Shown: in pieces, positions 8,291 to 56,846 of the stretch
Layout: the number at the start of each line of letters is the position of its first letter
Numbering within the stretch: position 1 is the stretch's first letter
DNA from: Eledone cirrhosa
Taxonomy: Eukaryota
Length of the DNA: 64,000 bases
Direction of reading: 5' to 3'
NCBI GenBank assembly: GCA_964016885.1
Contig: OZ024743.1
Location: 176,266,001-176,330,000, forward strand
The notes under the pieces: model-generated
Seen by the model: the letters and a program-made list of their open reading frames with translations, nothing else
Databases searched by the model: none
Told to the model about the DNA's origin: nothing
Position numbers and translations under genes: made by a program

Positions 8291-10222
8291 TGATGGCTGC
8301 CCCCTCGTTATCGAGTATGGCCATTGCACGAGGAGAAAGAAAAAAAAAAAAATAATAATAAATAAATAAATAAAAATAAAAAAAAAAAAAGCAATATATA
8401 TATATATATACATATACATACACATATACACACACGCACACCCACACACATACTCACACACACATATACACACACATACATTAATAACAATAATAATAAC
8501 AACAACAACAACAATAACAATAACAATAACGACAACAACAATAATAATATACATATACATATATATATACACACACACGCACACACATAAGCATATCTAC
8601 ACACACCCACACACACAATAGCAACTAACAGCGCTGCGATCGAATGTGCCTTTTTAGCCCAGCCAATGATCTAAAATGTCTTGCACAGAGTCGGCAACCA
8701 AAACATTCACTGGGAATAGTCGGCTGTGGTTGGAGTTCGTGTACTTTTGCATGTCGCTTGAGCACTCCTGCTGATTTACATTCTTTACCACATGCTTGGC
8801 AAGCATGATGGGTAGCATCTCCAACAGCAGCCTGGTAGTCAACCACTGGTCTTACTTTATGACTGCGAAGATGACTTTCGAGTCCAGCTTTGCTTAGGTA
8901 GAGTCTCGCACAGACGCTGCATGTCAGCACCATAGGAGGACCCTCGCCGCCTGGAAATGCAACAGCAATGCCCTTCCTCACATCCCGCTTTACTTTCTCG
9001 TATGCGATTCGAGATGCTTCAAAGGCAACTTTTCCCTCATATACAGTCTTTCTCCATTTATTACGATCAGCAGCAATATTCTCCCACGTATCAGCAGAGA
9101 TGTTAGCGTCTTTCAGAGAGGCTTTCAAGGAATCCTTATACCTCTTTTTTTGGTTTATGTGGCAGTCGTTTTCCTTTAACCAACTCTCCATAAAAGAGTT
9201 GTTTTGGTATTCTAGAATCCTTCATCCTGGCAAGTTGACCACTCCAACGGAGTCGTTGCTTAAGCACAAGAGCTTCTATACCGTCACACATAGAGCTTTC
9301 CAAAATCTCGACATCACTGATGTGGTCCCTCCAGTGAACGCCATGGATCCGTCTGAGACACATCTGATGGAAACGCTCCAATTGCTTAAGGTGGTGTCGA
9401 TATGTGACCCAGGTCTCGCAGGCATAAAGAAGACAAGAGAGCACACATGCCATGTACACCTTTGCCTTTGTCCTCCTGCATATGTCTCGCCGACCCCAGA
9501 GTCGCCTTTCTAGCTTTCCGAAAGCATCACTTGCTTTCCTAATCCTAAGTGAGATTTCACTGTCAAGGTTGCCGTATCGATTGACAGTGCTTCCCAGGTA
9601 GGCAAACTGATCAACCACTCCAAGTCGTTTGCCATACACATAGATGTTTGGTTCAGTGTACTGCTTTCCAGGGGCAGATTGGTACATGACGACGGTTTTC
9701 TTGAGACTGACAGTCAGACCAAGGGCAGTGTAAGCGTCAGAAAAAATGCATTCAAAATGTGCTGCATATCACTCTCTGTGTGCGCTACAAGATCGCAATC
9801 ATCTGCATACAAGAGGTCTCTTATGATTGATGTAAATACTTTTGTCTTCGCAGCAAAGCGCCTGATGTTAAATATGCTGCCTGAGGTTCGATATCGGATG
9901 TAAACACCATGCTCGCAATTACTGAATGCAATACAGAAAACCATTGCAAAGTATATGGCAAACAGGGTCGGTGCTGGAATATCCCCCTGTTTCACTCCAT
10001 TTTTTACTGAGATAGGCTCCGACATGTTACCCCCGACATTAACCCAAGCCTTCATGCCGTCATGGAAAGACCTAGCTAAAGCAAGGAACTTATCAGGGCA
10101 ACCAAGTTGCTGGAGAACCTTCCATAATGCCTCTCTGTTTACAGTATCGAAAGCTTTTGTCAGATCGACAAAAATCTGATACAGATCCAAGCCCTGTTCC
10201 ATGCACTTCTCCTGGAGCTGTC
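8291..10222 (-). mobile_element. 5'-truncated RTE LINE (RT C-terminal half, C2H2 fingers, microsatellite-rich 3'UTR, 41-nt tail)
   Basis: ORF pieces carry FVDLTKAFDTV, GVKQG and LLYADD plus three C2H2 motifs. Near-identical to 17367-18963, with frameshifts. Confidence 0.93.
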
Positions 10223-10290
10223 TACATACATGCATACATACATACATACATACATACATACATACATACATACATACATACATACATACA

Positions 10291-10320
<30 letters not shown>

Positions 10321-10321
<1 letters not shown>

Positions 10322-13300
10322 GGCGACCGTTGTGGTCTGTGTCCGATAATCGGACGTGTGTAATCACGGCTTACATGAAGGCAACATACCATATATTGGA
10401 AAAAGTTGAGCTACATTACGCGGTAAGATTACATACAATAATTCTACATAAGTGTTTGAACTGTAAGTGTGTTGTAAAACACCTATTTATATGAACGATA
10501 CATACACTTATGATATATGAACGATACATACACTTTAACATATAAATGCAACGTTGTTATATTACATTTATAAAGAAATATAAAAGTAACGTTTTCGATT
10601 CAGAAACAAAAATATAAGTGTTTGAACTGTGAATGTTGTGAATATGTTGTAGAACACCTATTTATATGAATGATACATAAACTTTAACATATAAATACAG
10701 CGTTGTTATATTATATTACATTCGTAAAGGAATATACTAAGTAACGGTTCTTTTTGTTCTCGATTCAAACGATTCAAGAACAACGTTTAAAACACAGTTG
10801 TAGAATTTAAAACTAACTGAAAGGAAATATTACCCAAGCTGTGAATAACTTTAAATTTGATTCTGACAGAACTTTGTCGTAACTTTTAAAGAAGATCATC
10901 GACTATTTTTAAAAAATAAATACGAAATATTAGTGAATAGACGAACTCATCATGGCAAAAAGTACAAGTCTCCTTCGACCAAATCGCAATTACAACCGTT
11001 GTATACAGTGGAGCTACGAGCTTAACAAAGAATTATATGAAGCATACAAACAATCTGAACCCCAAAAGTTCGGTTTTATGCAAAGGCTAAAAACTTTATG
11101 GAACTCCAAACACCCAGAATTAGACGTTTCTCCAAAGCATCTAAATGAACAGGCAAAACGTATCATTAGATGTAAATTGATACATCTAACGGAATCGAGT
11201 GATACTACAAATACAGCCCTTGTAGACAACCACCCCACCTCCACTGACAGACAAAGAGAATGGCCAGCTAAATCTAACAGTGAACAGCTCACCAACAATT
11301 TTGCTGAAATCCATCCCACTTCCACTGAAGAACAGCGAGAAAGGTCAGCTGACTCTAGTAGTAATTGTCACCACATCAACAACGAGGCTGCAATTCATGA
11401 CTCTACTGAACAAACAGAGCACCAAAAACTTGTGGGCACCCTACAAGTGATATGGAACGATATGTTTCAAGAGATACACAGCCTTAATGTGAGTGACAGA
11501 CCATACAACACTAGAGTCAGTAAAGAACCCACTAAATTGGAATTGGAAGCAGTGAACGAAATAGCTGGCAATTATCTGAAGGCTATACGATCTAAAGGTG
11601 TAGAAACGACATTTGAAACGCTCAATGTTTTGTTATATGTTTCAGCTGTCACATTGCTATCATATAACACACATCTAAAACCACGCAATCAAGATACAAA
11701 CAGAAAGCCTGAACCAGCGTGGATGCGAAATTTAAAAACCAAAATTTTGTCCCTGAGACGAAGTATCTCACACATCGCAGTCGTTATGAAATGCAACATA
11801 GAGAGAAACTTCACACGACACCAGGAAGACCTGAAGAAAAAGTTAGAGAGACGATTTGGAGATACCAAATCTAAAACTTTGAACTCCAAATTACACCAGT
11901 TGAAACAACAACTCACAGCTACAACAGAAAGACTAAAATATAAGTCAACAGCCCATAAACGACAAGTGCTAAATAGATTGTTTGCCAGAGATCCTAAATC
12001 AGTTTATCGCAGCTTCGGTGGCAAAAGCTCAATCCCTGTAAACGACACCCCTTCAAAAGAACAGGTTGAGAACTACTGGAGATCTGTATGGGAAACGGAT
12101 GACGGATTCAACAGACAAGCTAATTGGCTAAAACAACTGGAACAGGACTACTGCCAACATGTCCAGACAAAACAATATGACATAGATGGGTCAATACTGG
12201 AAACAGCTCTACAGAAAATGTCGAATAGGAAATCGCCAGGCCCAGACCTCATTACAGGATACTGGTTGAAGAATTTCACTTTCTATCGGCAAGATCTCAT
12301 ACGGCTGTTTACAGAAACCATTAAGGGCACACAAGAACTGCCCAGATGGTTATCAACTGCCACTACTCTCCTCATTCCCAAAAATAGCCAAACCACCCTT
12401 GCTAAAAATTACCGCCCAATTGCCTGCCAAAACATCATGTATAAATTATATACTGGGTGCCTTAACCTGTTCTTACAGGATCACTGTGCTACCAACAACA
12501 TCATAACACCTGAGCAAGCTGGTGGAAAGAGGGAGGTGTGGGGTTGCATAGATCACCTACTAACTAACAAAATGATTCAGGAAAAAACAACAAAGAATCG
12601 CAGAAACATGACTGATAGCTGGACTATCAAAAAGCATTTGATAGTGTACCTCATGGGTGGATTATTAAGGCTTTACAGTTAGCTAAAGTCCCACAACCAT
12701 TAGTAGCTGCTGTTGAACGCCTGACCAAGAACTGGTACACCAATTTGATCCTTAGAGGTGAGAAGGAGCAGGTTAAGACTGATAGGATACATTACCAGAA
12801 GGGCATCTTTCAGGGTGATAGCTTGTCAGTACTACTCTTCGTTCTCTCACTGAATCCACTATCTTACCTACTCAGGAAACAAGGTGGACAAAGAAGTGGG
12901 CCCAGAAGTATCTCCCATCTTTTCTTTGTTGATGACCTGAAGTTGTATGGGCCAAATATCAATGACATCAAGAAACAATTGGACCTCATTACACAATTTT
13001 CAACCGACATCAAAATGAAATTTGGTGAGTCCAAGTGTGCATATTTGGCAGTAAAACGTGGAAGAGCTGTGCCCTCCTCTAGAAATCTAGAGATGAACGG
13101 CCTGACAATACAACCTCTGCAGTCAGGTGACAACTACAGATATCTTGGACAGGATGAGAATGTCAGATATGATGGACCCATAAATAAGGAGAGAACCAGA
13201 ACTGAATACCTCAGAAGAGTAAAAAAAATATGGTCATCAGAACTGTCAGCATACAACAAATACATTGCCCACAATACCTATGCTGTGCCAATTCTAACGC

Positions 13301-14537
13301 CAACATTTGGCCTACTGAACTGGTCATTGCAAGAACTAAGTGAGATGGATGTTAGAACTCGAAAACTTCTCAGTGTTACTGGGAACTTTAACATCAATGG
13401 TGATGTGGATAGGCTATACTTCTCACGCAAGGAAGGTGGCCGGGGTCTAAAATCAATATTAACAACATATGAGACCCGGATAGTAACACTGAAGCAACAC
13501 CTTCAACAGAGGAAAAAGGTTGGCGACCATCTTGCTCAGGTTTATGAGCATGAAAAAAGAAATATCATTAGAATAGCGACTGATCTGGAGGAGAGATATG
13601 GAATAAAGCCTGATATAAATCTCTCACCCAGAGAAATCGGAAGATCCTATTCAATGTTCAAACAAGAAAAAAAATTGACCAATTTACAGAGAAAGTTGTG
13701 CATGGATACTTGAGGCGTAAAACACAGACCATAGAGGGGATAAACCACTCAAAAAGCCTGGCATGGAGTTCCGACAAGTTTATGACATCACACCTTGAGG
13801 GATATCTCGATGCAATACAGGAACAAGAACTCCCTACCAAATATCTGCTGCACAAAAGAGGAGGGCCAGCAGCTGACAATAAATGTAGGCTACTTAAAAC
13901 AAAGATCGAGGATGTAAGCCACATTGTTGCCAGCTGCGAAAGAATGTCATCTCGCTACTACCTCCCCATGAGACACGATGGGATAGCTAGAACTATCTGG
14001 AACGCACTTCGGAAAACAAAATTAACAACAAACGAGGAAGAATATATTGAGACAGATGGCACTAAGGAATACTGGTGGAACCTGAAAATAAAAACTGCCA
14101 CCAAATTAAAGCACAACCGGCCTGATATTGTAGTTTGGGACCACACATTGAAAACGTGTTCTGTTGTGGAGATCAGCTGCCCACTTGATGTAAACGTTGT
14201 CAGAAAAATACAGGAGAAGGAGGACATCTACGGACCATTGATGAGGAGCTTACAAATCCAGTATCCAAGATACACCTTTAGCTTCATACCCATCATTATT
14301 GGTGCTACGGGTTATATACCAACCCGCTTGGACCAAAGTATGACCGAACTTGGATTTGCGGACAAAAAGCGCAGCTCCCTAATTCATAGTCTACAAATGG
14401 CTGCGATAGCTGGCACCTTCAAAATATGCAAAACATTCTTGCGATTCAAGGGATGACAATTTCTTTTCTTTTACAACCTTGCCACCAGGAAGGTGGCTGG
14501 TCAAAAAAATATACTCGAAATTAAGAGAAAGAGAAAA
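10321..14537 (+). mobile_element. Near full-length R4/Dong-type non-LTR retrotransposon (RT plus restriction-like endonuclease)
   Basis: KSPGPD, NYRPIAC, GIFQGDSLS, HLFFVDDLKLY, a degenerate CCHC (CRLL..H...C), RHD and HNRPDIVVWD..VVEISCP. Flanked on both sides by (CATA)n. Confidence 0.92.
10952..14456 (+). pseudogene. Dong/R4 RT-RLE polyprotein broken into three ORFs by frameshifts (~12620, ~13690)
   Basis: ORFs 10952-12682, 12745-13713 and 13698-14456 carry consecutive RT and RLE motifs. Confidence 0.88.
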
Positions 14538-17366: not shown

Positions 17367-17933
17367 CTAACAGTGCTGCGATCGAATGTGCCTTTTTAGC
17401 CCAGCCAATGATCTAAAATGTCTTGCACAGAGTCGGCAACCAAAACATTCACTGGGAATAGTCGGCTGTGGTTGGAGTTCGTGTACTTTTGCATGTCGCT
17501 TGAGCCCTCCTGCTGATTTACATTCTTTACCACATGTTTGGCAAGCATGATGAGTAGCATCTCCAACAGCAGCCTGGTAGTCAACCACTGGTCTTACTTT
17601 ATGACTGCGAAGATGACTTTCGAGTCCAGCTTTGCTTAGGCAGAGTCTCGCACAGACGCTGCATGTCAGCACCATAGGAGGACCCTCGCCGTCTGGAAGT
17701 GCAACAGCAATGCCCTTCCTCACATCCCGCTTTACTTTCTCGTGTGCGATTCGAGATGCCTCAAAGGCAACTTTTCCCTCATATACAGTCTTTCTCCATT
17801 TATTACGATCAGCAGCAATATTTTCCCATGTATCAGTAGAGATGTTAGCGTCTTTCAGAGAGGCTTTCAAAGAATCCTTATACCTCTTTTTTGGGTTTAT
17901 GTGGCGGTCGTTTTCCTTTAACCAACTCTCCAT
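17367..17933 (-). CDS. RTE ORF C-terminus with three C2H2 zinc fingers (frameshifted continuation)
   Basis: KKRYKDSLK...WENIAADRNKWR; CSVC..H...H, CQTC..H...H, CRLC..H. Confidence 0.75.
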   Translation of the reverse strand: MESWLKENDRHINPKKRYKDSLKASLKDANISTDTWENIAADRNKWRKTVYEGKVAFEASRIAHEKVKRDVRKGIAVALPDGEGPPMVLTCSVCARLCLSKAGLESHLRSHKVRPVVDYQAAVGDATHHACQTCGKECKSAGGLKRHAKVHELQPQPTIPSECFGCRLCARHFRSLAGLKRHIRSQHC

Positions 17934-20922
17934 AGAAGAGTTGTTTTGGTATTCTAGAATCTTTCATCCTGGCAAGGTCACCACTCCGACGGAGTCGTTG
18001 CTTAAGCACAAGAGCTTCTATACTGTCACACATAGAGCTTTCCAAAATCTCGACATCACTGATGTGGTCCCTCCAGTGAACGCCATGGATCCGTCTGAGA
18101 CACATCTGATGGAAACGCTCCAATTGCTTAAGGTGGTGTCGATATGTGACCCAGGTCTCGCAGGCATAAAGAAGACAAGAGAGTACACATGCCCTGTACA
18201 CCTTTACCTTTGTCCTCCTGCATATGTCTCGCTGACCCCAGAGTCGCCTTTCTAGCTTTCCGAAAGCATCACTTGCTTTCCTAATCCTAAGTGAGATTTC
18301 ACTGTCAAGGTTGCCGTATCGATTGACAGTGCTTCCCAGGTAGGCAAACTGATCAACCACTCCAAGTCGTTTGCCATACACATAGATGTTTGGTTCAGTG
18401 TACTGCTTACTAGGGGCAGGCTGGTACATGACGACGGTTTTCTTGAGACAGACAGTCAAACCCAGGTCAGTGCAAGCGTCAGAAAATGCATTCAAAATGT
18501 GCTGCATATCACTCTCTGTGTGCGCTACAAGATCGCAATCATCTGCATACAAGAGGTCTCTTATGATTGATGTAAATACTTTTGTCTTCGCAGCAAAGCG
18601 CCTGATGTTAAATATGCTGCTTGAGGTTCGATATCGGATGTAAACACCATGCTCGCAATTCCTGAATGCAATACAGAAAACCATTGCAAAGTATATGGCA
18701 AACAGGGTCGGTGCTGGAATATCCCCCTGTTTCACTCCATTTTTTACTGAGATAGGCTCCGACATGTTACCTCCGACATTAACCCAAGCCTTCATGTCGT
18801 CATGGAAAGACCTAACTAAAGCAAGGAACTTATCAGGGCAACCAAGTTTCTGGAGAACCTTCCATAATGCCTCTCTGTTGACAGTAACGAAAGCCTTTGT
18901 CACATCGACAAAAACCTGACACAGATCCAAGCCTTGTTCAATGCCTTTCTCCTGGAGCTGTCTAGCTGAGAAGATCATATCAGTAGTGCCGCGTCCAGCA
19001 CGAAAACTAGCTTGACTTTCAGAAAGAACACAATCTGCAATGTGTGTCAGCAGAGGGTCCAGAAGCACCCTACATAAAACTTTCCCTACGACAGAAAGCA
19101 ATGATATACCTCTGTAGTTCCCACAATCATTCCTGTTACCCTTTCCCTTGTACAAGACCACCATTACTGCATCTTTCCAGTCCTCAGGTACGGATTCATT
19201 AGCCCATATCCTTCCAAACAAAGAGTGCAGAGGTTGCAGGAGTCTCTCACCACCATATTGTAGGAGCTCAGCATGTATGCCATCCATACCTGGAGATCTT
19301 CCACTGTTCAGCTTCGAAATAGCCACTGGAACCTCCACAAGCGTCGGAGGTTCTGCGTGAGCTACTTTCACAGGACTTTCTGGAATGAGATTGCGGAAAT
19401 CTTCACTGACGACAGACGGCTGATTCAAAAGATCATCAAATTGCTCTTGCCACCTTCGTAGAATTCCCTGTGAGTCACGAAGAAGTTCTTTGCCATCCTT
19501 GCTGCGAAGCGGTGTCACCAGAGAAGAAGACGGTCCATAAACCTCACGCAAGAGACTGTACAACAGCATTGCGTTATTGGAATCAGACGCAGTTTGTATC
19601 TCACCAGCCTTCTCACTCCACCACTGATCCTTCATCTGAGAAAGACTCCGCCTAACACGTGATTTTACATCCCTGAGCTCCTCATGCAACGTATTCCTCT
19701 TCTGTGGTTTTGCCGTCAAGTAGCGTGACAGAGCACGCCTCTTATCAGCCAACAAGTCTTCTATATGTACATCATTCTCATTAAACCAGTCTTGATGTTT
19801 TCTCTGCGCCAATCCCAGAACACGCCTGCCTACATCATAAACCGACTTTTTAAGGGTCGGCCAATCCTCACCAAGATCTGCAGCCTGCATCTCTTCTTCC
19901 AATGTCCTCTTCACATTTTTATCCTTAAGACTAGCAGCATTCAATTTTTGGGGCAGGGTAACACCAGGAGCCCGGATTTTACGTTTGGTGATTAGTTTCA
20001 CTTTTGCGCGTACCAGGCGGTGGTCCGTCCAGCACTCAGCTCCACGAAGAACACGAACGCACTGCACATCCTGTCTGTCTCGCATCCTGACTAGGACGTA
20101 GTCTAAAATATGCCATTCTTTAGATGCAGGATGCATCCATGTGGTCTTGAATTTGTTCTTTTGTTGGAACATGGTGTTGGTAACACACAGATCCAGCTCC
20201 TCACACATCTGCAGCAGGAGCATACCATTGCTGTTACACTTTCTTACCCCATGCCTTCCGATTACATTCCATGTGTTAAAATCCCTACCCACTCTAGCAT
20301 TAAAGTCACCAAGCACGATGACTTTGTCTGCCTGAGGGATATTTCTTAGAACACCTTTCAAGGCATGGTAAAAGGACAGTTTTTCTTCATCGACAGAATT
20401 CATAGTTGGAGCATACACACTCACCAGGGTAGCATATCTTCCTTTGTCCAGCGGAACTCTCATGGACATAAGACGCTCACTAATCCCTACTGGGAATTCT
20501 TCTAATTTATTCACAAGTACAGTCTTAACAGCAAATCCTACTCCAGCCTCTCTTCTGGTTCCTTCATCTCTTCCTTTCCAGAAGAATGTATATTCTCCAC
20601 AAAATTCCGTAAGATGACCATCTCCAGCTAACCTCGTCTCAGATAAAGCCACGATGTCAAGATCGTAACGTCGAAGCTCCTTTGCAACAAGAGCGGTCCT
20701 CCGTTCAGGACGCTCCAAGGAATCCCTGTCAAGCAGCGTCCGTACGTTCCAGCAGCCAAGACTAAATGCCTTGTTTGGCTCTATTACAATGGCACGATGA
20801 CGAGCGGGCCCAGGCTGTGATAACCTGGGGGGGGGGGGGGCTCTGCCCTTATTGCCAATGATCTTTTTTGTTCCAGAACCTAAATTGCCAATTATCTCTT
20901 TTACATTGTTCTGGAACATCAT
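17878..20922 (-). CDS. RTE-clade apurinic endonuclease / reverse transcriptase
   Basis: WNVRTL, LSETRL, VYAPT, LGDFNARVG, LDY and TDH (APE); NYRGISLL, QG and YADD (RT). Open for 1014 codons; the true start is uncertain. Confidence 0.9.
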   Translation of the reverse strand: MMFQNNVKEIIGNLGSGTKKIIGNKGRAPPPPRLSQPGPARHRAIVIEPNKAFSLGCWNVRTLLDRDSLERPERRTALVAKELRRYDLDIVALSETRLAGDGHLTEFCGEYTFFWKGRDEGTRREAGVGFAVKTVLVNKLEEFPVGISERLMSMRVPLDKGRYATLVSVYAPTMNSVDEEKLSFYHALKGVLRNIPQADKVIVLGDFNARVGRDFNTWNVIGRHGVRKCNSNGMLLLQMCEELDLCVTNTMFQQKNKFKTTWMHPASKEWHILDYVLVRMRDRQDVQCVRVLRGAECWTDHRLVRAKVKLITKRKIRAPGVTLPQKLNAASLKDKNVKRTLEEEMQAADLGEDWPTLKKSVYDVGRRVLGLAQRKHQDWFNENDVHIEDLLADKRRALSRYLTAKPQKRNTLHEELRDVKSRVRRSLSQMKDQWWSEKAGEIQTASDSNNAMLLYSLLREVYGPSSSLVTPLRSKDGKELLRDSQGILRRWQEQFDDLLNQPSVVSEDFRNLIPESPVKVAHAEPPTLVEVPVAISKLNSGRSPGMDGIHAELLQYGGERLLQPLHSLFGRIWANESVPEDWKDAVMVVLYKGKGNRNDCGNYRGISLLSVVGKVLCRVLLDPLLTHIADCVLSESQASFRAGRGTTDMIFSARQLQEKGIEQGLDLCQVFVDVTKAFVTVNREALWKVLQKLGCPDKFLALVRSFHDDMKAWVNVGGNMSEPISVKNGVKQGDIPAPTLFAIYFAMVFCIAFRNCEHGVYIRYRTSSSIFNIRRFAAKTKVFTSIIRDLLYADDCDLVAHTESDMQHILNAFSDACTDLGLTVCLKKTVVMYQPAPSKQYTEPNIYVYGKRLGVVDQFAYLGSTVNRYGNLDSEISLRIRKASDAFGKLERRLWGQRDICRRTKVKVYRACVLSCLLYACETWVTYRHHLKQLERFHQMCLRRIHGVHWRDHISDVEILESSMCDSIEALVLKQRLRRSGDLARMKDSRIPKQLFYGELVKGKRPPHKPKKEV

Positions 20923-20930
20923 TGAATTTG

Positions 20931-20964
<34 letters not shown>

Positions 20965-21432
20965 TAATAATAGTAATAATAATAATAATAATAGTAGTAC
21001 ACTATTAATAATTATTAATGGACTCGTGCAATGCCTGTGCGTGACGAATATTTTTAAAGTGAGGAAAGACTGTGCACTGAGCCAGTCCCACTCTCTGAGC
21101 GACAGTAGCTATAACCCGAAAAGAAGAAAAGATCAACATCATCAGTAACTACTGAGCCGCAGGTTTTATATCGGAGTAAACCCAGTTTCCTGAGATGCCT
21201 TCTCCTAGAAGAATGCCCTGACAAGGGCTAGGGGTTCTTCACTCCCAGTGGTTTAACTGCGCGATCGGGCATCCAGCCCGATTATTTCTATGTCCCCGCG
21301 CAAAAAAAAAAAAAAAAATCACTTATTGACACTTATACGTACGACATACACACACACGCATACATATGCGCGCACACAGCAACACATACATACAAACAAA
21401 CACACACACACGCTACTCTACTCACTTACACG

Positions 21433-26607: not shown

Positions 26608-26732
26608 ATAGGAAAAGAGTCAGGACCCCGACGGCTGAGCGCCGGCCGTTTCGACAGCTAGATCTGAACTGTTCGGATGTAGCTGTCGAAACGGCTGGAG
26701 CTCAGCCGTCGAGGTCCTGGCTCTATTCCTAT
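26608..26732. repeat. GC-rich palindrome carrying hammerhead 3' halves (PLE-type inverted terminus)
   Basis: Arms of ~53 bp. Right arm GAAA-CGGCTG-gagct-CAGCCG-TC at 26688-26710, followed by (TA)n. Confidence 0.75.
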
Positions 26733-28457: not shown

Positions 28458-28811
28458 TTATGTATATATATGTATATATATATATTTTTTTTTTCAATCA
28501 CATATATTTTTAATCACATATATTTTTATTTGTTTGACCCGAATTACTTGGTCGTTTTTTTTGCTGTGCGGATGATTGTTTAACCATCGTCTCAGTGTGT
28601 TTGGCCTTTAACGTATGTTGTAGCTCTGGTTCATCTGAATCATTGAGCGCTTGCCACACATCTCGGAAGTTGTTTTTCGTTAATTCTTAAGCCGAAATAC
28701 GATTCTCGCTAATTTATATTTGTATATATATATATATATATATATGTTTATCCCGGGTTCAATCAGGGGTAACCAAAGTAAGTAAGGTACTCAATACATA
28801 GCAGAGTATAA

Positions 28812-28942
28812 ATATTTAATATAAAAATTGGCTTCTACAGGACTAGAACTGTCTCATTCGGAGGAAATCGTTAGGAATGCCCGATGATTTCCTCCGAATG
28901 AAACATTTCTAGTCCTGTAGAACTCATTTCTATATTAAATAT
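28812..28942. repeat. Palindrome of two divergently oriented degenerate hammerheads (family H2)
   Basis: ttctacaggactagaactgtctcattcggaggaaatc mirrored by gatttcctccgaatgaaacatttctagtcctgtagaa. Confidence 0.8.
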
Positions 28943-28975
28943 ATATATATAAAGCAATGTTTTATATATATATAT

Positions 28976-29582
28976 ATCGTTCCTGTGTCAGTGTTGAACA
29001 AAAAGGTGACGTGGTTGCCTTAACACCGTACGGCATAAATTCAGGCTGTTCAGTTTGTTTACAAACGAACAAAGCGGGCGCTATAATAAGCGTCCGCTAA
29101 ACTGATACGTACATATATGTATGTGTACCTGTATGTATATATATATATATGCATGCTACTGTACGTCTGTATACATACATGTATGTACGTATACATACAT
29201 ACTTACATTTAAGTAAGTGCCGAACGAAGAGTGAGAAATGAAATTTCGTTTTCATTTTATTACAACTCATCGTTTTCAGTGCGCCTGAGCGATTTAACTC
29301 ACTCGATATGCAAATTAGGTTGCTCAGCCGTTAATTTTGATAAGGAAAGTATATACTTTCGAACGTTCAACCATCTGGCAGAAGGGTATACGGTGCTGAT
29401 GATAGCTAACAAGCTTGAAACTAGTACATCGTTCCTGTGTCAGTGTTGAACAAAAAGGTGACGTGGTTGCCTTAACACCGTACGGCATAAATTCAGGCTG
29501 TTCAGTTTGTTTACAAACGAACAAAGCGGCGTTATAATAAACGTCCGCTAAACTGATACGTACATATATGTATGTGTACCTG

Positions 29583-29662
<80 letters not shown>

Positions 29663-29713
29663 TGCTACTGTACGTCTGTATACATACATGTATGTACGTA
29701 TACATACATACTT
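28976..29713 (+). mobile_element. Retrozyme / Penelope pseudo-LTR-like element: 452-bp unit plus partial second unit, in (TA)n
   Basis: 28976-29203 is repeated at 29428-29713, with the hammerhead at the junction. Confidence 0.75.
29390..29432 (+). ncRNA. Minimal type I hammerhead ribozyme (predicted cleavage after GUA at 29426)
   Basis: ACGGTG-CTGATGA-T-AGCT-aaca-AGCT-T-GAAA-CTAG-TA-CATCGT: 6-bp stem I, 4-bp stem II, palindromic stem III. Confidence 0.85.
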
Positions 29714-30247
29714 ATATATATATATATATATATATATATACGAATATAGACGAACCGAGAGTGTTTTTGATTGAATACTTATAAAAATGAGAAAGCTCCT
29801 CGCTAGAACAACCAATAAGTTTTTTTCTTTGTTATATGTATTCATATATATTTATGTGGATATTCTGTGGTACTGTGATTGGAAGACCACAAATCAAAGA
29901 AGTACTCGGTCAATAGTAAAACGAGGAGATGGTACATTAGTAGAAGTAGAAGATCTGCCTCGAGGTGGGTGGTTTCGGCTAGTTACCTCTATATTATTTA
30001 TTTAACTTCATGCATGGAGTAAAAGCGTTACCTAAGGTTTCAATGCCCTATTTTGACTAGGTGACAAGATTGGAACAGGGCCTGACAACTAGATCTAAAA
30101 TTTTATAGAAATGGTCATATTTGGGCATTGAAACCTTGGTTAGTGCTTTTGTTCTGTGTATGAACATAAATAATTAATATAACAGCCCTTATACCTGATT
30201 GAGTACTCTTTTGCTTTTTCCTTTATCACATCAGCCAATATTTTATT

Positions 30248-37852: not shown

Positions 37853-37879
37853 ATATATATATATATACATATATATATA

Positions 37880-38033
37880 AGTTGAAATAAAATGAAAACG
37901 AAATTTCATTTCTCACTCTTAGTACGGCACTGTATGGCATAAATCATGCTGTTCAGTTTGTTTACAAACGAACAAAGCGGCGTTATAATAAGCGTCCGCT
38001 AAACTGATACGTGCATAAATGTATGTGTACCTG

Positions 38034-38127: not shown

Positions 38128-38162
38128 TATATATATATATATATTATTAAAATAACAGATTA

Positions 38163-38215
38163 AAGTTTAAGCAAAGAATCGCTGCTTTCACCCTTAACGG
38201 GATCTTCTGAAACTC
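38163..38215 (-). ncRNA. Type I hammerhead variant (core CAGAAGA) in a ~140-bp palindrome (38143-38284)
   Basis: Minus strand: GAGTTT-CAGAAGA-T-CCC-gttaa-GGG-T-GAAA-GCA-loop-TGC-TT-AAACTT; all three stems pair. Confidence 0.65.
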
Positions 38216-38379
38216 TTCAGAAGATCCCGTTAAGGGTGAAAGCAGCGATTCCTTGCTTAAACTTTAATCTGTTATTTTAATAATTATTTGCTCTACGGTT
38301 CTTATATATTTGTTATATATATTTATCCTTATCGAGCCCTCTTTGAATTTTAGTCTTCAAATTTATTATTATTACTATA

Positions 38380-38454
<75 letters not shown>

Positions 38455-39128
38455 GAGTAACGGGCTCAATCAGGGACAACCACAGTTAGTAATAGTAAGG
38501 TATTCTACATTAGTAGGGAGTAAACATCAAGTTTAATATAGAAATGGCTTTTACAGGAATAGAACTGTTTCACTCAAAAGAAATCATTAGGATGCGTGGC
38601 TCAAGATCCTTTTAAATGCAATAGACCGACTCCAGCCCAGTCTGCACATCACATTTTTTAATGAAGCAAAACCAAAATCTCATAACATGAAACATTGTTT
38701 TGATTTTAATATATACACTCTGCCACAGCACAGGTTACTGATTTTGGTACCTTTCTCAGTAAACCACGAATCTATATAACACCAATAGCACTAACACAGC
38801 ATCGTTCTTGTATTTGTTGCAAGTGAGTAAATGTTCCCGATGACGAATAAAGCTTCAGAGACAGTTGTGTGGCAGTCTGAGAGAGCCGAGATGACAACTA
38901 AAACATTCATAGCGAGACTGTTTCATGTTTCTAATACATAAACATATCGTATATGTTTTTATATACATCTTTAATAGTATATACATTTTCAACTGGTGGG
39001 AAAAGGATGTGGGTCTTGTTTTAACACATAATAACAGGCGTGATGGGTGTGGTTAGATAATGGATTACTAGATTTTTTTTTCTAGATCAAATATCGGATT
39101 ATGTTCGTTGTTATTATTTATATATCTA

Positions 39129-43028: not shown

Positions 43029-43388
43029 ATATAGCAGATTAATTCGTGGTAGCAGGGATGGTCAGTAAGAATGTGTCTGAAAGCAATGGGGGGTATTTTA
43101 GCATGTCAAAAGATATTTTTCAGCTTTTGTCTTATACGGAGAAGTGCGTGTGTGTGTGTGTGTGTATAAGTCTCTTTGTATGTTAATGTACGCGTGTGTA
43201 TGTGTGTGTGTATATATGTGTGTGTGTGTGTGTGTGTGTGGGTGGACCACTATTTTTTTCCCCCTGGTAAAATGGTGTACATTATTCGATTTTTTCAGTA
43301 AAATCGGTTCTCTTAATAGAACATCAAAAATCTTAATAATAAAAGGTGTGAAATGATATTCACTATATATATATACACATACATATAT

Positions 43389-43455
<67 letters not shown>

Positions 43456-43944
43456 TTTTTTTCTGTTGCACCATAGAGCATGTGTGTTTACACACACGCA
43501 CTACTCCGTATAAGACAAAAGCTGAAAAATATCTTTTGACATGCTAAAATAATTGTAAGATATGCACTCAATATTTTGAGTTTGTCTACAGAATTCTCTA
43601 AACCTTTGTCACTTAGTAGAACCTTAATGAATTTAGCTTTAAAAGAATCTCCCTTTCCTTTAAATCTATCTAGCATGACTGACCCCCCCCCCCCCCCACT
43701 GATCTTATAGACACCTGTTAGCTTAAGAGAAACTTAATAACAAGGATTGGCATGCCATCCTGAACCTGTTTATAGAATTCTGTCTGCCTTTGTTACTCTA
43801 AAAACAAAAATAAACTATAGCTTTGTAGAATTAGCTTTTAATGAATTCCCTTTTCTATCAACCAATGACCTACACCCATCCCACCCCCACCCTCTCCTAC
43901 CACTTGTAGAGACCTATAAATACCATACTTATTTTTTGATACCC

Positions 43945-43995
43945 AGATTCCTGATTGTTTCTAAAGAATGAAACAGTTCTAGTCCTGTAGAATCT
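43945..43995 (+). ncRNA. Family H2 hammerhead with mutated core (CTGATTG)
   Basis: AGATTC/GAATCT stem I, TTC/GAA stem II, GAAA, CAG/CTG stem III and a GUA triplet. Confidence 0.6.
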
Positions 43996-44012
43996 CATCT
44001 ATATTAAAACTA

Positions 44013-44053
<41 letters not shown>

Positions 44054-44117
44054 AAAGAAAATAAGGGTTCTTTTTTAATGAAATAAACGAGATGTCCTAC
44101 ACGAGTGAAAGTATAAG

Positions 44118-44337
44118 GAAATCGTAAATGCAACTGGAGTCTTTTAAAGAATATTTATTTGTTTCCTTTGTCGGTTTCACAGTTCTTATGCTTTTCAAAA
44201 TTAGAATTGAGATGGAGGGTTTGTGGTTTTTCAAGTCTTCCATCTCAATTCTACATTTGAAAAGCATAAGAACTGTGAAACCGGTAAAGGAAACAAATAA
44301 ATATTCTTAAAAAGACCCCAGTTGCATTTTCGATTTC
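44118..44337. repeat. ~100-bp-arm palindrome with degenerate U3-A8-type hammerheads
   Basis: Right arm TTGAAAA-GCA-taagaac-TGT-GAAA-CCGG-TA at ~44257-44286; flanked by (TA)n. Confidence 0.75.
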
Positions 44338-44427
44338 TTTTTCATATATACATATATATATAGTGGTAGAGCACTGGAAGGTAATATCCGTAGTGGTAGA
44401 GCACTCAGTCCATGGGACGAGTTAGGT

Positions 44428-44933
44428 AGAAGTGGTTACACAACAGTTAGTTAACCATACCGAGAACAATTGTTCCACCTTAGCGGATCCTCAGCTCGTA
44501 ATGGACATGGTTATACGGAACAGGAAGGACAACCGTACGAACGCGCATGTGCAGAAACCGGTCACTTTACACAGGCAATACTAAAATGCGTGCGAGAGGT
44601 GTAAGGGAGATAACTGCGAAAGTCCGAAAAGTTTTTAGTTGATAAGAAAATTATGATGCTGTTGTATAATTCAATCCGGAGCTTTGTAGTTATGTAAGAG
44701 GTGTTTCGAGACGTGTGGACAACGTGTGAATAATTCATTTCTCGTGTTTTGGCAATCACTATTGCATAATCTCTAAAGAGACCGGTTTCTGCGCATGCGC
44801 GTTCGTACGGTGGTCCTTCCTATTTCTGCGCATGCGCGTTCGTACGGTTGTCCTTCCCATTACGAGCTGAGGATCCGCTAAGGTGAAACAATTGTTCTCG
44901 GTATGGTGAACTAACTGCTGTGTAACCACTTCT
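44428..44933. mobile_element. ~500-bp element with long inverted arms, each carrying a hammerhead
   Basis: 44428-44563 is the reverse complement of 44779-44933 (with an indel and a 37-bp duplication); ends in (TA)n. Confidence 0.78.
44863..44900 (+). ncRNA. Minimal type I hammerhead ribozyme (predicted cleavage after GUU at 44896)
   Basis: CGAG-CTGAGGA-T-CC-gctaa-GG-T-GAAA-CAATTG-TT-CTCG. Confidence 0.8.
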
Positions 44934-45752
44934 ATATATATATATATACACATATATAAAGAGATATATGTATATGTATGTAGAGACAGAGCCATATATG
45001 GCACAAGAAACACGGTATATAGTATATATACCAAATACATATTCTGTAGAAGAATACCTACACAAGTGGAATCAAAAGTGAAACCTTATAGCGCTATTTT
45101 ATACCTGTATATTATGGCTAAAGATCGATCTATGTAATCGATCATCGTAATAAAAAAATAAAAATCAATATATTCGATCATCGAGCACAAACTATTGATT
45201 AAAATTAGACCACATGAGACTCAAGTACTCATCAGAGGTTTAGTTTTACCATTCTAATGGAAATATAGAATGAATATGTTAAATAAATCAATATACCTGG
45301 GAATATCCAAGCTAAGTCATATATATATATATATATATATATATGACTTAGCTGTTGATATTCCCAGGTATGTTGATTTATTTACCATATATATGTGTGT
45401 GTATATAATGTATACACTTTTATAATCATATAATATTTCTGCTGCTCGTAAACGGTGACTGCCAAATGAGAATGGAGACAATTTTGTTAGTAAAAGAGAG
45501 GACATATTAATGAATATAAGGTCATGGCTAGTAGAGAGGAGGATATGACTAACGTGGACAGATAAAATAATAAAGAGTGAGAAAATAATGCTACGAAGTA
45601 ACTTTGGAATAAAAATTTGCGGCAAAATTTTATAGGAATATATATGAAAAGACAGTCAGTTAAAATAGAAAACACACACAAAGGTGTTTACAATTTCTTC
45701 AGATAGAAGAATCAATAGAAACAGAGCCGGTTTTTAATATAATGACATATAT

Positions 45753-46141
45753 ATGGAGGCACATTGCTTAGTGGTTAGAGCATTGGCCTTGCAATCGAAA
45801 GGCTGTGAGTTCAATTCTCAGACCGGGTGATGGTTGTTTCCTTGAGCAAGACACTTTATTTCACATTGCTCCAGTTTAATCAGCTGTAGAAATGTGATGA
45901 TAGGGACTGGGGTCCCTATCATTCCACTGCAAAGTGGTCGTGGAGGTGCCACGGCAAAAAAAGCAGTCAGCCCACACTGTAAAGTGGACGTGTAGGTGCT
46001 ACGGAAAAAAAGCACCCAGCTCTCACTGTAAATGAGGTTGGCGTTAGGAAGGGCATCCAGCTGTAGAAATCAAGCCAGAATCAGTTCCCTTGCAAGCAGG
46101 GAAAAGCGGACGTAAAATGATGATGATGATGATGATGATGA
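45753..46141 (+). mobile_element. Family 2 SINE head joined to a SINE 3' part ending in (GAT)n
   Basis: A box ttgcttagtgg, B box gagttcaattc, ggcgttaggaagggcatccagctgtag and a (tga)n tail. Confidence 0.75.
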
Positions 46142-51889: not shown

Positions 51890-52665
51890 TATATACACAC
51901 ATTATATATAATACAATAAACAGATAAATACACACATATATATATGAGCTTATTTAATTATAAATATTGTGAATTTTATATATATTGTGAATTTTATATA
52001 TATAAATGGCTTCTACAGGACTAGAACTGTTTCATTCGAAAGAAATCATCATAATATTGAGAGGGGGGACTAGATAAAATATTTCAAATCAAATGTGTAT
52101 AAGTTATAAGTTAAAATGTATAAATAGAGACGATAGTGGAGGTATATCTGTTTAGTGGAACAGTAGACGATAGAATTAAATACAGACGAGAATCTCCCTT
52201 TAATGAAACAGCAGACGATAGAATTAAGGCAATTTAAATTTTAAGCATTTGCATTTCATCGTTACGGGGTCGATAAAATAAAATACCAGTAATACACTGT
52301 CACTATAAGTAGACGACTTTCAAATTGAATTGTTGGTTCCATTTCTTTAGTATTTTCAATTGTAGTTATCTACTTAAAAAGCGTTACACGGTTAGAGACA
52401 TAATTCGTAAGTTATATCTTCCCTATTAAACCATTGCATTATTTCGCCTACAATATAACAAAAATGAAATGTTCTTTAAAGAAACAGGAATATAACTTTA
52501 TAAAAAAAAAAGTTGCATCCGCTTCTTTTATCATTGATAATTTTTTCGTTTTAATATTAATTGTTTTTTGTAGTTGTTTATATTAAAAATCTTACTGTAA
52601 TATTTACTTAAACGAAGGCAGACATCTAAACTTATAGATTAATCTTGAGCGAAGGACTAGATAAA

Positions 52666-52978
<313 letters not shown>

Positions 52979-55887: not shown

Positions 55888-56846
55888 AACTAGACATGAA
55901 AAATGCGCAAGCTCAAAAGTGCCACAGAATGTTATAATAAACCTTCAAAAGTGTGGGACTAGAGTTGTTGCTAAAAAATATTGTAATCATTATATATCGT
56001 ACATTCTGTGGCATCCTTTATAAAAATAGCTTAAACCAACGAAGCCTTTATTTTTACGCTATTTCACTTAGTTAATTCTTAGAGTGTAACATATAAAAAT
56101 AAATACATCTATGTTTAATGTAATAACAGCTATAAATAATAACGTAATATTATTATCATATACTCATAGTAACAAAATAATTGTGTTGAAAATTAATATG
56201 ATGCTTATATGAACGATCAAATCTATAATGATAATTTCTTAAATATACTAATAGTAAAATAATTTAGTTATCTATTGTTACATTTTCATAGAACTATAAT
56301 ATTAACAATCGTATTGCATTATCAAATTTTTATCACTACAAACTTTCATATTGGAATTACCTTAAGCCACTTATTATTACTTCGCTTTCGTACTTTTACA
56401 GCTGTAGATATTGCGCTGTATCTTATATCTAATATCAATATCTCATGGTAATTTGCATGCAGTGTAAAATAGGTTTATTAATAACTTTAATATGAAATGT
56501 ATTATACAGGGCTGCGGAGTCGGCCAAAAATTGACTGGCTCCAACTCAGGATCCGATATTCCCTTATTTCCTAAATTTCAGCTCCGCAGCTCTGTTATTA
56601 TATTAATTAATTTATTTTATAGTTGTAAATCATATTTTTATATGTTACACTCTAAGAATTAACTAAGTGAAATAGCGTAAAAATAAAGGCTTCGTTGGTT
56701 TAAGCTGTTTTTATAAAGGATGCCACAGAATGTACGATATATAATGATTACAATATTTTTTAGCAACAACTCTAGTCCCACACTTTTGAAGGTTTATTAT
56801 AACATTCTGTGGCACTTTTGAGCTTGCGCATTTTTCATGTCTAGTT
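55888..56846. repeat. ~214-bp near-perfect inverted repeat (55888-56101 / 56633-56846)
   Basis: aactagacatgaaaaatgcgc...gtaacatataaaaata and its reverse complement. Confidence 0.92.
56507..56594. mobile_element. 88-bp hAT-like mini-MITE
   Basis: TIRs cagggctgcggag / ctccgcagctctg; 8-bp flanks gtattata / ttattata. Confidence 0.7.

Follow-up and report, generated by a model that had tools for sequence, protein, structure and literature searches.

A copy of a high-copy repeat with hammerhead motifs on both strands, most likely a 5'-truncated Penelope-like retrotransposon with an inverted pseudo-LTR or a non-coding derivative moved by one

Organization of the locus

The window, by which we mean the whole 64-kb stretch of DNA analysed here, is AT-rich and contains many microsatellites and LINE-like frames (the LINE label was assigned by eye), features that mark it as animal repeat DNA. 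Long frames with breaks, which resemble LINE-type reverse transcriptases by eye, are found at 8625-10370, 10937-14456 and 17367-21108. Downstream of the element described here lies a segment, 45745-45880, which we take to be a tRNA-like SINE head.

The element consists of a repeat copy and an inverted duplicate of its own end, set between two (TA)n flanks (Table 1). Its arms are 143 nt (left) and 161 nt (right) long and mismatch at 7 of 129 aligned bases. The left arm runs 66 nt further before it meets (TA)n, and the right arm meets (TA)n directly, without a tail; a target duplication would be indistinguishable within the (TA)n repeat. These boundaries differ from those of the initial annotation, which had let the element start at 44428 and so left out the tail at 44361-44426, had given the spacer as ~215 bp where 204 nt were measured, and had described CpG-rich repeats as enclosed by the arms, whereas the repeats, including the 37-bp tandem duplication, belong to the arms themselves.

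Table 1. Coordinates of the element, its parts and its flanks within the window
Feature	Position	Strand	Basis or remark
Whole insertion	44361-44934	-	5'-truncated repeat copy plus inverted copy of its own end
Left (TA)n flank	44344-44360		Target
3' tail	44361-44426	-	66 nt; internal 15-nt repeat 30 nt apart; on one arm only
Left arm	44427-44569	-	Likely part of the 3' pseudo-LTR; bears the mutated hammerhead
Type I hammerhead with A13G at 44475	44461-44498	-	Core pattern; change private to this copy
Spacer	44570-44773	-	204 nt of further family sequence, cut off at 44774
Inversion junction	44770-44781		Palindrome with 5-bp arms and a 2-nt loop
Right arm	44774-44934	+	Tail-less inverted copy of the element end
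Tandem duplication	44786-44859	+	37 bp, inside the right arm
Two copies of palindrome GCGCATGCGC	44791-44800, 44828-44837		NRF1 consensus
Type I hammerhead, core intact	44863-44900	+	Core pattern and fold
Right (TA)n flank	44935-44960		Target

The palindrome GCGCATGCGC corresponds to the NRF1 consensus as given in PMC10810270. In the left arm, its copy carries a change at 44550 that is private. The two right-arm copies lie just upstream of the right motif, so that outward transcription may be possible. The palindromes can be regarded as a possible internal promoter element.

The spacer contains one open frame of 70 codons on the minus strand, a length with a chance of ~0.06 over six frames. 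In the search for relatives of this 70-aa frame, none of 10 candidates scored and no match was found among 1.84 billion representatives, and one Pfam match, at E 0.12, was below the cut-off. The frame was rejected as the end of an ORF, as it has no relatives and the family continuation shows stops in frame (by eye). No ORF start was seen in the pseudo-LTR (pLTR) or the tail, and an RT or GIY-YIG ORF is absent from this short copy.

Hammerhead motifs on opposite strands

The initial annotation had predicted two outward-facing hammerheads, one intact at 44863-44900 and one with a GGAA change at 44461-44498, and core matching recovered both in these places. The right motif combines CUGAGGA with GAAA, and the left motif, its inverted copy, reads GGAA owing to base 44475. 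Compared with the type I definition (CUGANGA, GAAA, an NUH triplet, three helices and ends in helix I), the right arm agrees throughout, and the left arm departs from it by A13G. The two hammerheads are 364 nt apart, and the right one is predicted to cut after 44896. The 23-nt core pattern has two matches in the 64-kb window, a number reached in none of 100 shuffles (shuffle mean 0.00), and a strict type I descriptor has one match, as against none in 100 simulated windows. The two motifs are not due to chance by these counts.

None of 4227 Rfam families reached its gathering score in the window. At E values up to 10, the interval 44300-45000 gave 22 weak matches, all of them over the TA flank and none to a hammerhead family. 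As no hammerhead match was obtained from Rfam, it is the core motif, and not an Rfam model, on which the ribozyme call is based; judged by this motif, the assignment of both sequences as putative hammerhead ribozymes holds.

Helix I of the right hammerhead has 4 pairs, and 4 more are possible beyond a 2x2 internal loop (44857-44906). The 38-nt motif as first delimited thus does contain the hammerhead core, but its helix I can extend past those limits. Helix II is made up of a U-U mismatch and 2 bp, and helix III of 2 bp over a palindromic loop. In Penelope-like elements (PLEs), the hammerheads are reported to be of type I, to have a very short, palindromic loop 3 and to act as dimers in tandem RNA (PMC6765202, PMC4209133). 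The hammerhead fold of the monomer is predicted at -6.9 kcal/mol, compared with -10.7 kcal/mol for the minimum-energy fold, and the folding z-scores of the motif by itself (-0.69, -1.91 and 0.53) are unremarkable. Pairing of the helix III palindrome between two copies is predicted to give a self-duplex of -6.4 to -8.2 kcal/mol, as would be expected of dimer-type motifs.

The description of the motif as "extremely minimal" proved overstated, since the axolotl ribozyme HHR_Amex2 has a similar design and cleaves, at 22% in 1 h as a monomer and better as a dimer (PMC7229834). HHR_Amex2 shares with the motif a 2-bp helix III with a tetraloop and a U-U at the base of helix II; this likeness covers helix III and the U-U. 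The genomic setting differs, as Amex2 is described in 350-bp head-to-tail arrays that are expressed as circles, whereas the copies considered here are dispersed and the present one is inverted.

Predicted folding of transcripts

According to the initial annotation, a ribozyme would have been encountered whichever strand was transcribed. The folding model does not support this for a working ribozyme. RNA reading through the element, which makes the antisense arm first, is predicted to fold into a single hairpin, at -290 kcal/mol for the plus strand and -278 kcal/mol for the minus strand, that pairs each motif with its antisense. Of the 38 motif bases in the plus-strand RNA, only one is left out of this pairing, and the probability of helix I is 0.0. 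For RNAs begun at 44700 or later, the predicted probability of helix I is 0.5-0.6, and for those begun at 44600 it is 0.03; that of helix III is at most 0.04 in RNAs begun inside the element. On this model, the right motif could fold only in an RNA started inside the element, and would then have no partner on the same strand. Since the two motifs lie on opposite strands, no same-strand dimer is possible, and ribozymes with a short helix III are reported to need one (PMC4209133, PMC6765202).

Copies of the family in public runs

Part of the stretch is present in 8 of 11 public runs, and copies were analysed in four of the 11 (X1, X4, X6 and X9) at 82% likeness. The runs may not be from the window's own species, and X4 and X6 are labelled as two other organisms. 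Contigs of the family number 7,754 in X1, 39 in X4 and 16 in X6, and 29,908 of the 12.5 million reads of X9 belong to it, X9 being a RAD library, in which depth depends on cut sites and does not measure copy number. The element therefore belongs to a high-copy repeat family. None of the listed public-run records spans this locus, the 64-kb window contains no further copies of the family, and metagenome scans for family copies gave no match.

Past 44774, other copies continue into different, mutually matching sequence (31 contigs in X1, 1 in X4 and 2 in X6), with a median continuation of 117 nt in X6. Depth in X9 drops across the junction from 1022 at 44744-66 to 14 at 44790-812, and 34 molecules start at 44797, whereas the equivalent position of the left arm has 1755 and 4085 such starts; X9 reads with differences at the right-arm site carry at least 13 other changes. 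As other copies run past 44774 and almost nothing crosses it, this inversion point is not a fixed feature of the family, and the two-armed unit is consequently not what amplified.

Left-to-right-arm joints with different breakpoints make up 9 of the 15 joints listed (of 73) and point to recurrent inversions, although false joints are possible among them, each of which is supported by a single read start or by 1-3 contigs and has sides of 24-38 letters at 82% likeness. One listed joint folds back at 44620-44625. Two kinds of 3' end are found among the copies, one at 44427, seen in 30 contigs of X1, and the other past the tail; there are also joints that skip 64-65 nt. Copy ends of both kinds lie mostly against simple repeats, many of them in (TA)n.

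Most family reads leave the locus sequence at 44638-44652, and depth is back near 44675. The interval 44630-44675 is thus either a variable, indel-rich stretch or the site of a subfamily difference.

Decay of the left motif

The share of depth with the GAAA base at 44475 is 0.93, 1.0, 1.0 and 0.98 in the four runs analysed (4/4), so that GGAA is private to the present copy. It is one of at least 8 near-fixed differences from the family within 414 nt. The copy is ~2% from the family, and the divergence between its arms gives 2.7% per arm; at the measured divergence, the chance of a change somewhere in the 22 core bases is 0.35-0.45. The GGAA change is ordinary private decay, at what we infer to be a neutral rate.

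Conservation of the core among copies had been proposed as a check on the ribozyme, and it was borne out in the 40 of 138 difference rows covered. These rows record single positions rather than pairs of positions, and the differences within the motif are the reversion to GAAA, N7 and a loop-3 base. N7 is described as the one free core position of the hammerhead (PMC2837043), and its variant has a share of 21% in X1. For the loop-3 base, the share in X9 is probably too high, since this site is where reads end.

Other hammerhead-like repeats in the window

The window contains a second intact type I hammerhead, which belongs to another family (29390-29432, plus strand) and also has a U-U at the base of helix II and a palindromic loop 3. 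The strict descriptor bars G-U pairs in helix I and misses this hammerhead, at 29396, which a relaxed descriptor finds. It is held in a direct repeat with a 452-nt period (28976-29715, plus strand), the first copy of which begins 1-3 nt after the predicted cut (28976 against 29427). Such a start would be expected if a ribozyme-cut or circular RNA was the template. Another piece of this repeat family, at 37877-38011, is formed by two parts in opposite orientation.

At 38145-38282 there is a head-to-head palindrome (96%) of a sequence unrelated to that of the element. Both of its arms carry a full type I-like fold with one core change, A at core position 4, and with a helix II of U-U and 3 bp and a 5-nt loop like that of the element; its junction lies ~5 nt before the core. 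A further repeat family, found at 28807-28947, 38532-38592, 43966-44008 and 51991-52050, yields 5 aligned pieces whose majority sequence gives a hammerhead-like core; there are changes in each piece, helix I is not recoverable, and 28807-28947 is a head-to-head pair.

Beside the element, 44115-44340 forms a hairpin with 109-nt arms, the right one having GAAA followed by a short palindrome, and is perhaps a relic of a hammerhead-bearing repeat. Additional inverted repeats are found at 26611-26729, 45274-45390, 52768-52977, 43094-43551 and 55888-56846, the last of which has 214-nt arms that are 99.5% alike and ~530 nt apart. No exact hammerhead core was found in those further inverted repeats that were scanned.

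Origin of the element

We consider it very likely that the element is a copy of a high-copy repeat with its end duplicated in inverted orientation, and specifically either a 5'-truncated Penelope-like retrotransposon with an inverted pLTR or a non-coding derivative moved by one. Several marks of EN+ PLEs are found at the locus and in its family: a pLTR with a type I hammerhead and a short palindromic helix III, a 5' truncation next to which a truncated copy lies inverted, head to head, two 3' end points with a tail confined to one end, and an AT-rich or (TA)n target, seen both in the flanks and in the loose ends of copies. The motif departs from the min-HHR consensus of PLEs (PMC4209133), in which position 9 is followed by an additional base and G10.1 pairs with C11.1; here, a U-U occupies the base of helix II. 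As no RT or GIY-YIG gene linked to the family was found in the copy, among protein relatives or in metagenome scans, membership of the PLEs in the strict sense is presumed.

This architecture is already described in the literature. Insertions of PLEs are reported with 5' truncation, an inverted truncated neighbour copy, a one-end tail and microsatellite targets, with (TA)n targets given for Naiad and the microsatellite bias attributed to Neptune (PMC8557442). Head-to-head copies with junction palindromes have been read as the outcome of self-priming (PMC3846280), and the tail has been ascribed to reverse transcription starting at either of two internal sites, which leaves two 3' ends (PMC11167929). 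The present element resembles the Penelope of Adineta vaga (PMC3846280), the PLEs of PMC8557442 and Poseidon of Anolis (PMC11167929) in its 5' truncation and head-to-head inverted end, as well as in its junction palindrome, one-end tail, two 3' end points and AT-rich target; it differs from them in that its tail is 66 nt long compared with the usual 30-40 bp. Similarly, dual minimal hammerheads of type I, on opposite strands and within 100-700 bp of each other, are described for Cercyon-type PLEs of Schistosoma mansoni, where they have a palindromic helix III and were read as truncated PLE copies (PMC4209133). In those elements helix II, of 7-8 bp, includes G10.1-C11.1 and one additional base, in contrast to the U-U and 2 bp found here, and a parent ORF was shown; none was found for the present element. 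Passages of PMC13282606 list Penelope-like families without mention of hammerheads.

For a Penelope-like origin, the following course of events can be proposed. The endonuclease of the element would have cut the (TA)n target, and reverse transcription, starting from the tailed end of the RNA, would have run for ~415 nt. Synthesis may then have folded back or switched template at the short palindrome and copied the element end again, up to the second, tail-less end point. The 37-bp slip in the right arm would have occurred then or later, and the copy would subsequently have accrued ~2-3% neutral changes, one of them at A13. The ribozyme would act in active copies rather than here: in their head-to-tail precursor RNA it would probably work as a dimer or together with the protein of the element.

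Other origins can be weighed against this one. The locus could be a partial inverted insertion of a non-LTR retrozyme, that is, of a non-coding unit spread via ribozyme-cut circular RNA with borrowed PLE enzymes. Formation of the locus would then overlap with the course proposed above, and the parent element would differ. No coding sequence was found in the element, the family is present in very many copies, its spacer is rich in indels, the hammerhead is built like axolotl HHR_Amex2, and the window contains the 452-nt direct-repeat unit of another hammerhead family, all of which would suit a retrozyme; animal retrozymes have, moreover, been argued to be PLE-derived (10.64898/2026.07.22.740005). 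We nevertheless regard this origin as possible but rather unlikely, since the head-to-tail repeat is absent at the locus, where the arms are inverted, and the end of many copies, whether at the tail or at 44427, lies in (TA)n. The unit would also be longer than 530 nt (414 nt here plus at least 117 nt), compared with the 150-450 bp given for tandem retrozyme repeats (PMC7229834).

Production of the inverted arm after insertion, by fold-back or gene conversion during host DNA repair, is improbable in our view: the junction palindrome and the 37-bp slip would fit repair synthesis equally, but the right arm stops exactly at the equivalent of the family end point 44427 and is followed by (TA)n, rather than ending at random or past the tail, and the arrangement is routine for PLEs. 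The long inverted arms, TA flanks and non-coding middle recall instead a MITE-like unit, amplified whole, with hammerheads in fixed terminal inverted repeats and a ribozyme guarding each strand. In a MITE family, numerous copies are uniformly built and bounded by symmetric terminal inverted repeats. The element does not conform to this, as its junction is not common to the family and its ends are asymmetric by the 66-nt tail. Read-through RNA is, in addition, predicted to bury both motifs, one of which has decayed at an apparently neutral rate, and we find this origin hardly credible. A MITE with hammerheads would be unusual if true, as a literature search on this combination listed a single paper, a review on plant TEs.

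Significance of hammerheads in the repeats of this genome

The locus itself matters little, being a decaying copy of a published architecture, and is of use as a pointer. The role of the hammerhead in EN+ PLEs is stated as unclear (PMC8557442), and hammerhead cleavage was dispensable for insertion in vitro (PMC11167929). Inversion junctions lie a few bases upstream of the core at 28807-28947, at 38145-38282 and in several contigs of the family (44501-44503), few loci in all. Together with the repeat copy that begins 1-3 nt after its predicted cut site (28976 against 29427), they could be taken to suggest that in this genome the start or fold-back point of insertions is determined by the hammerhead, which would be a footprint of ribozyme action in vivo; we think this unlikely. 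The joint table is biased towards junctions near 44859, since the match of the right arm to the family begins only at that point. Such a footprint, if true, would bear on what the hammerheads of PLEs do. With two intact and several relic hammerheads from three or four repeat families in one window, all missed by Rfam, this genome would be well suited to a count of 5' ends relative to the predicted cut sites.
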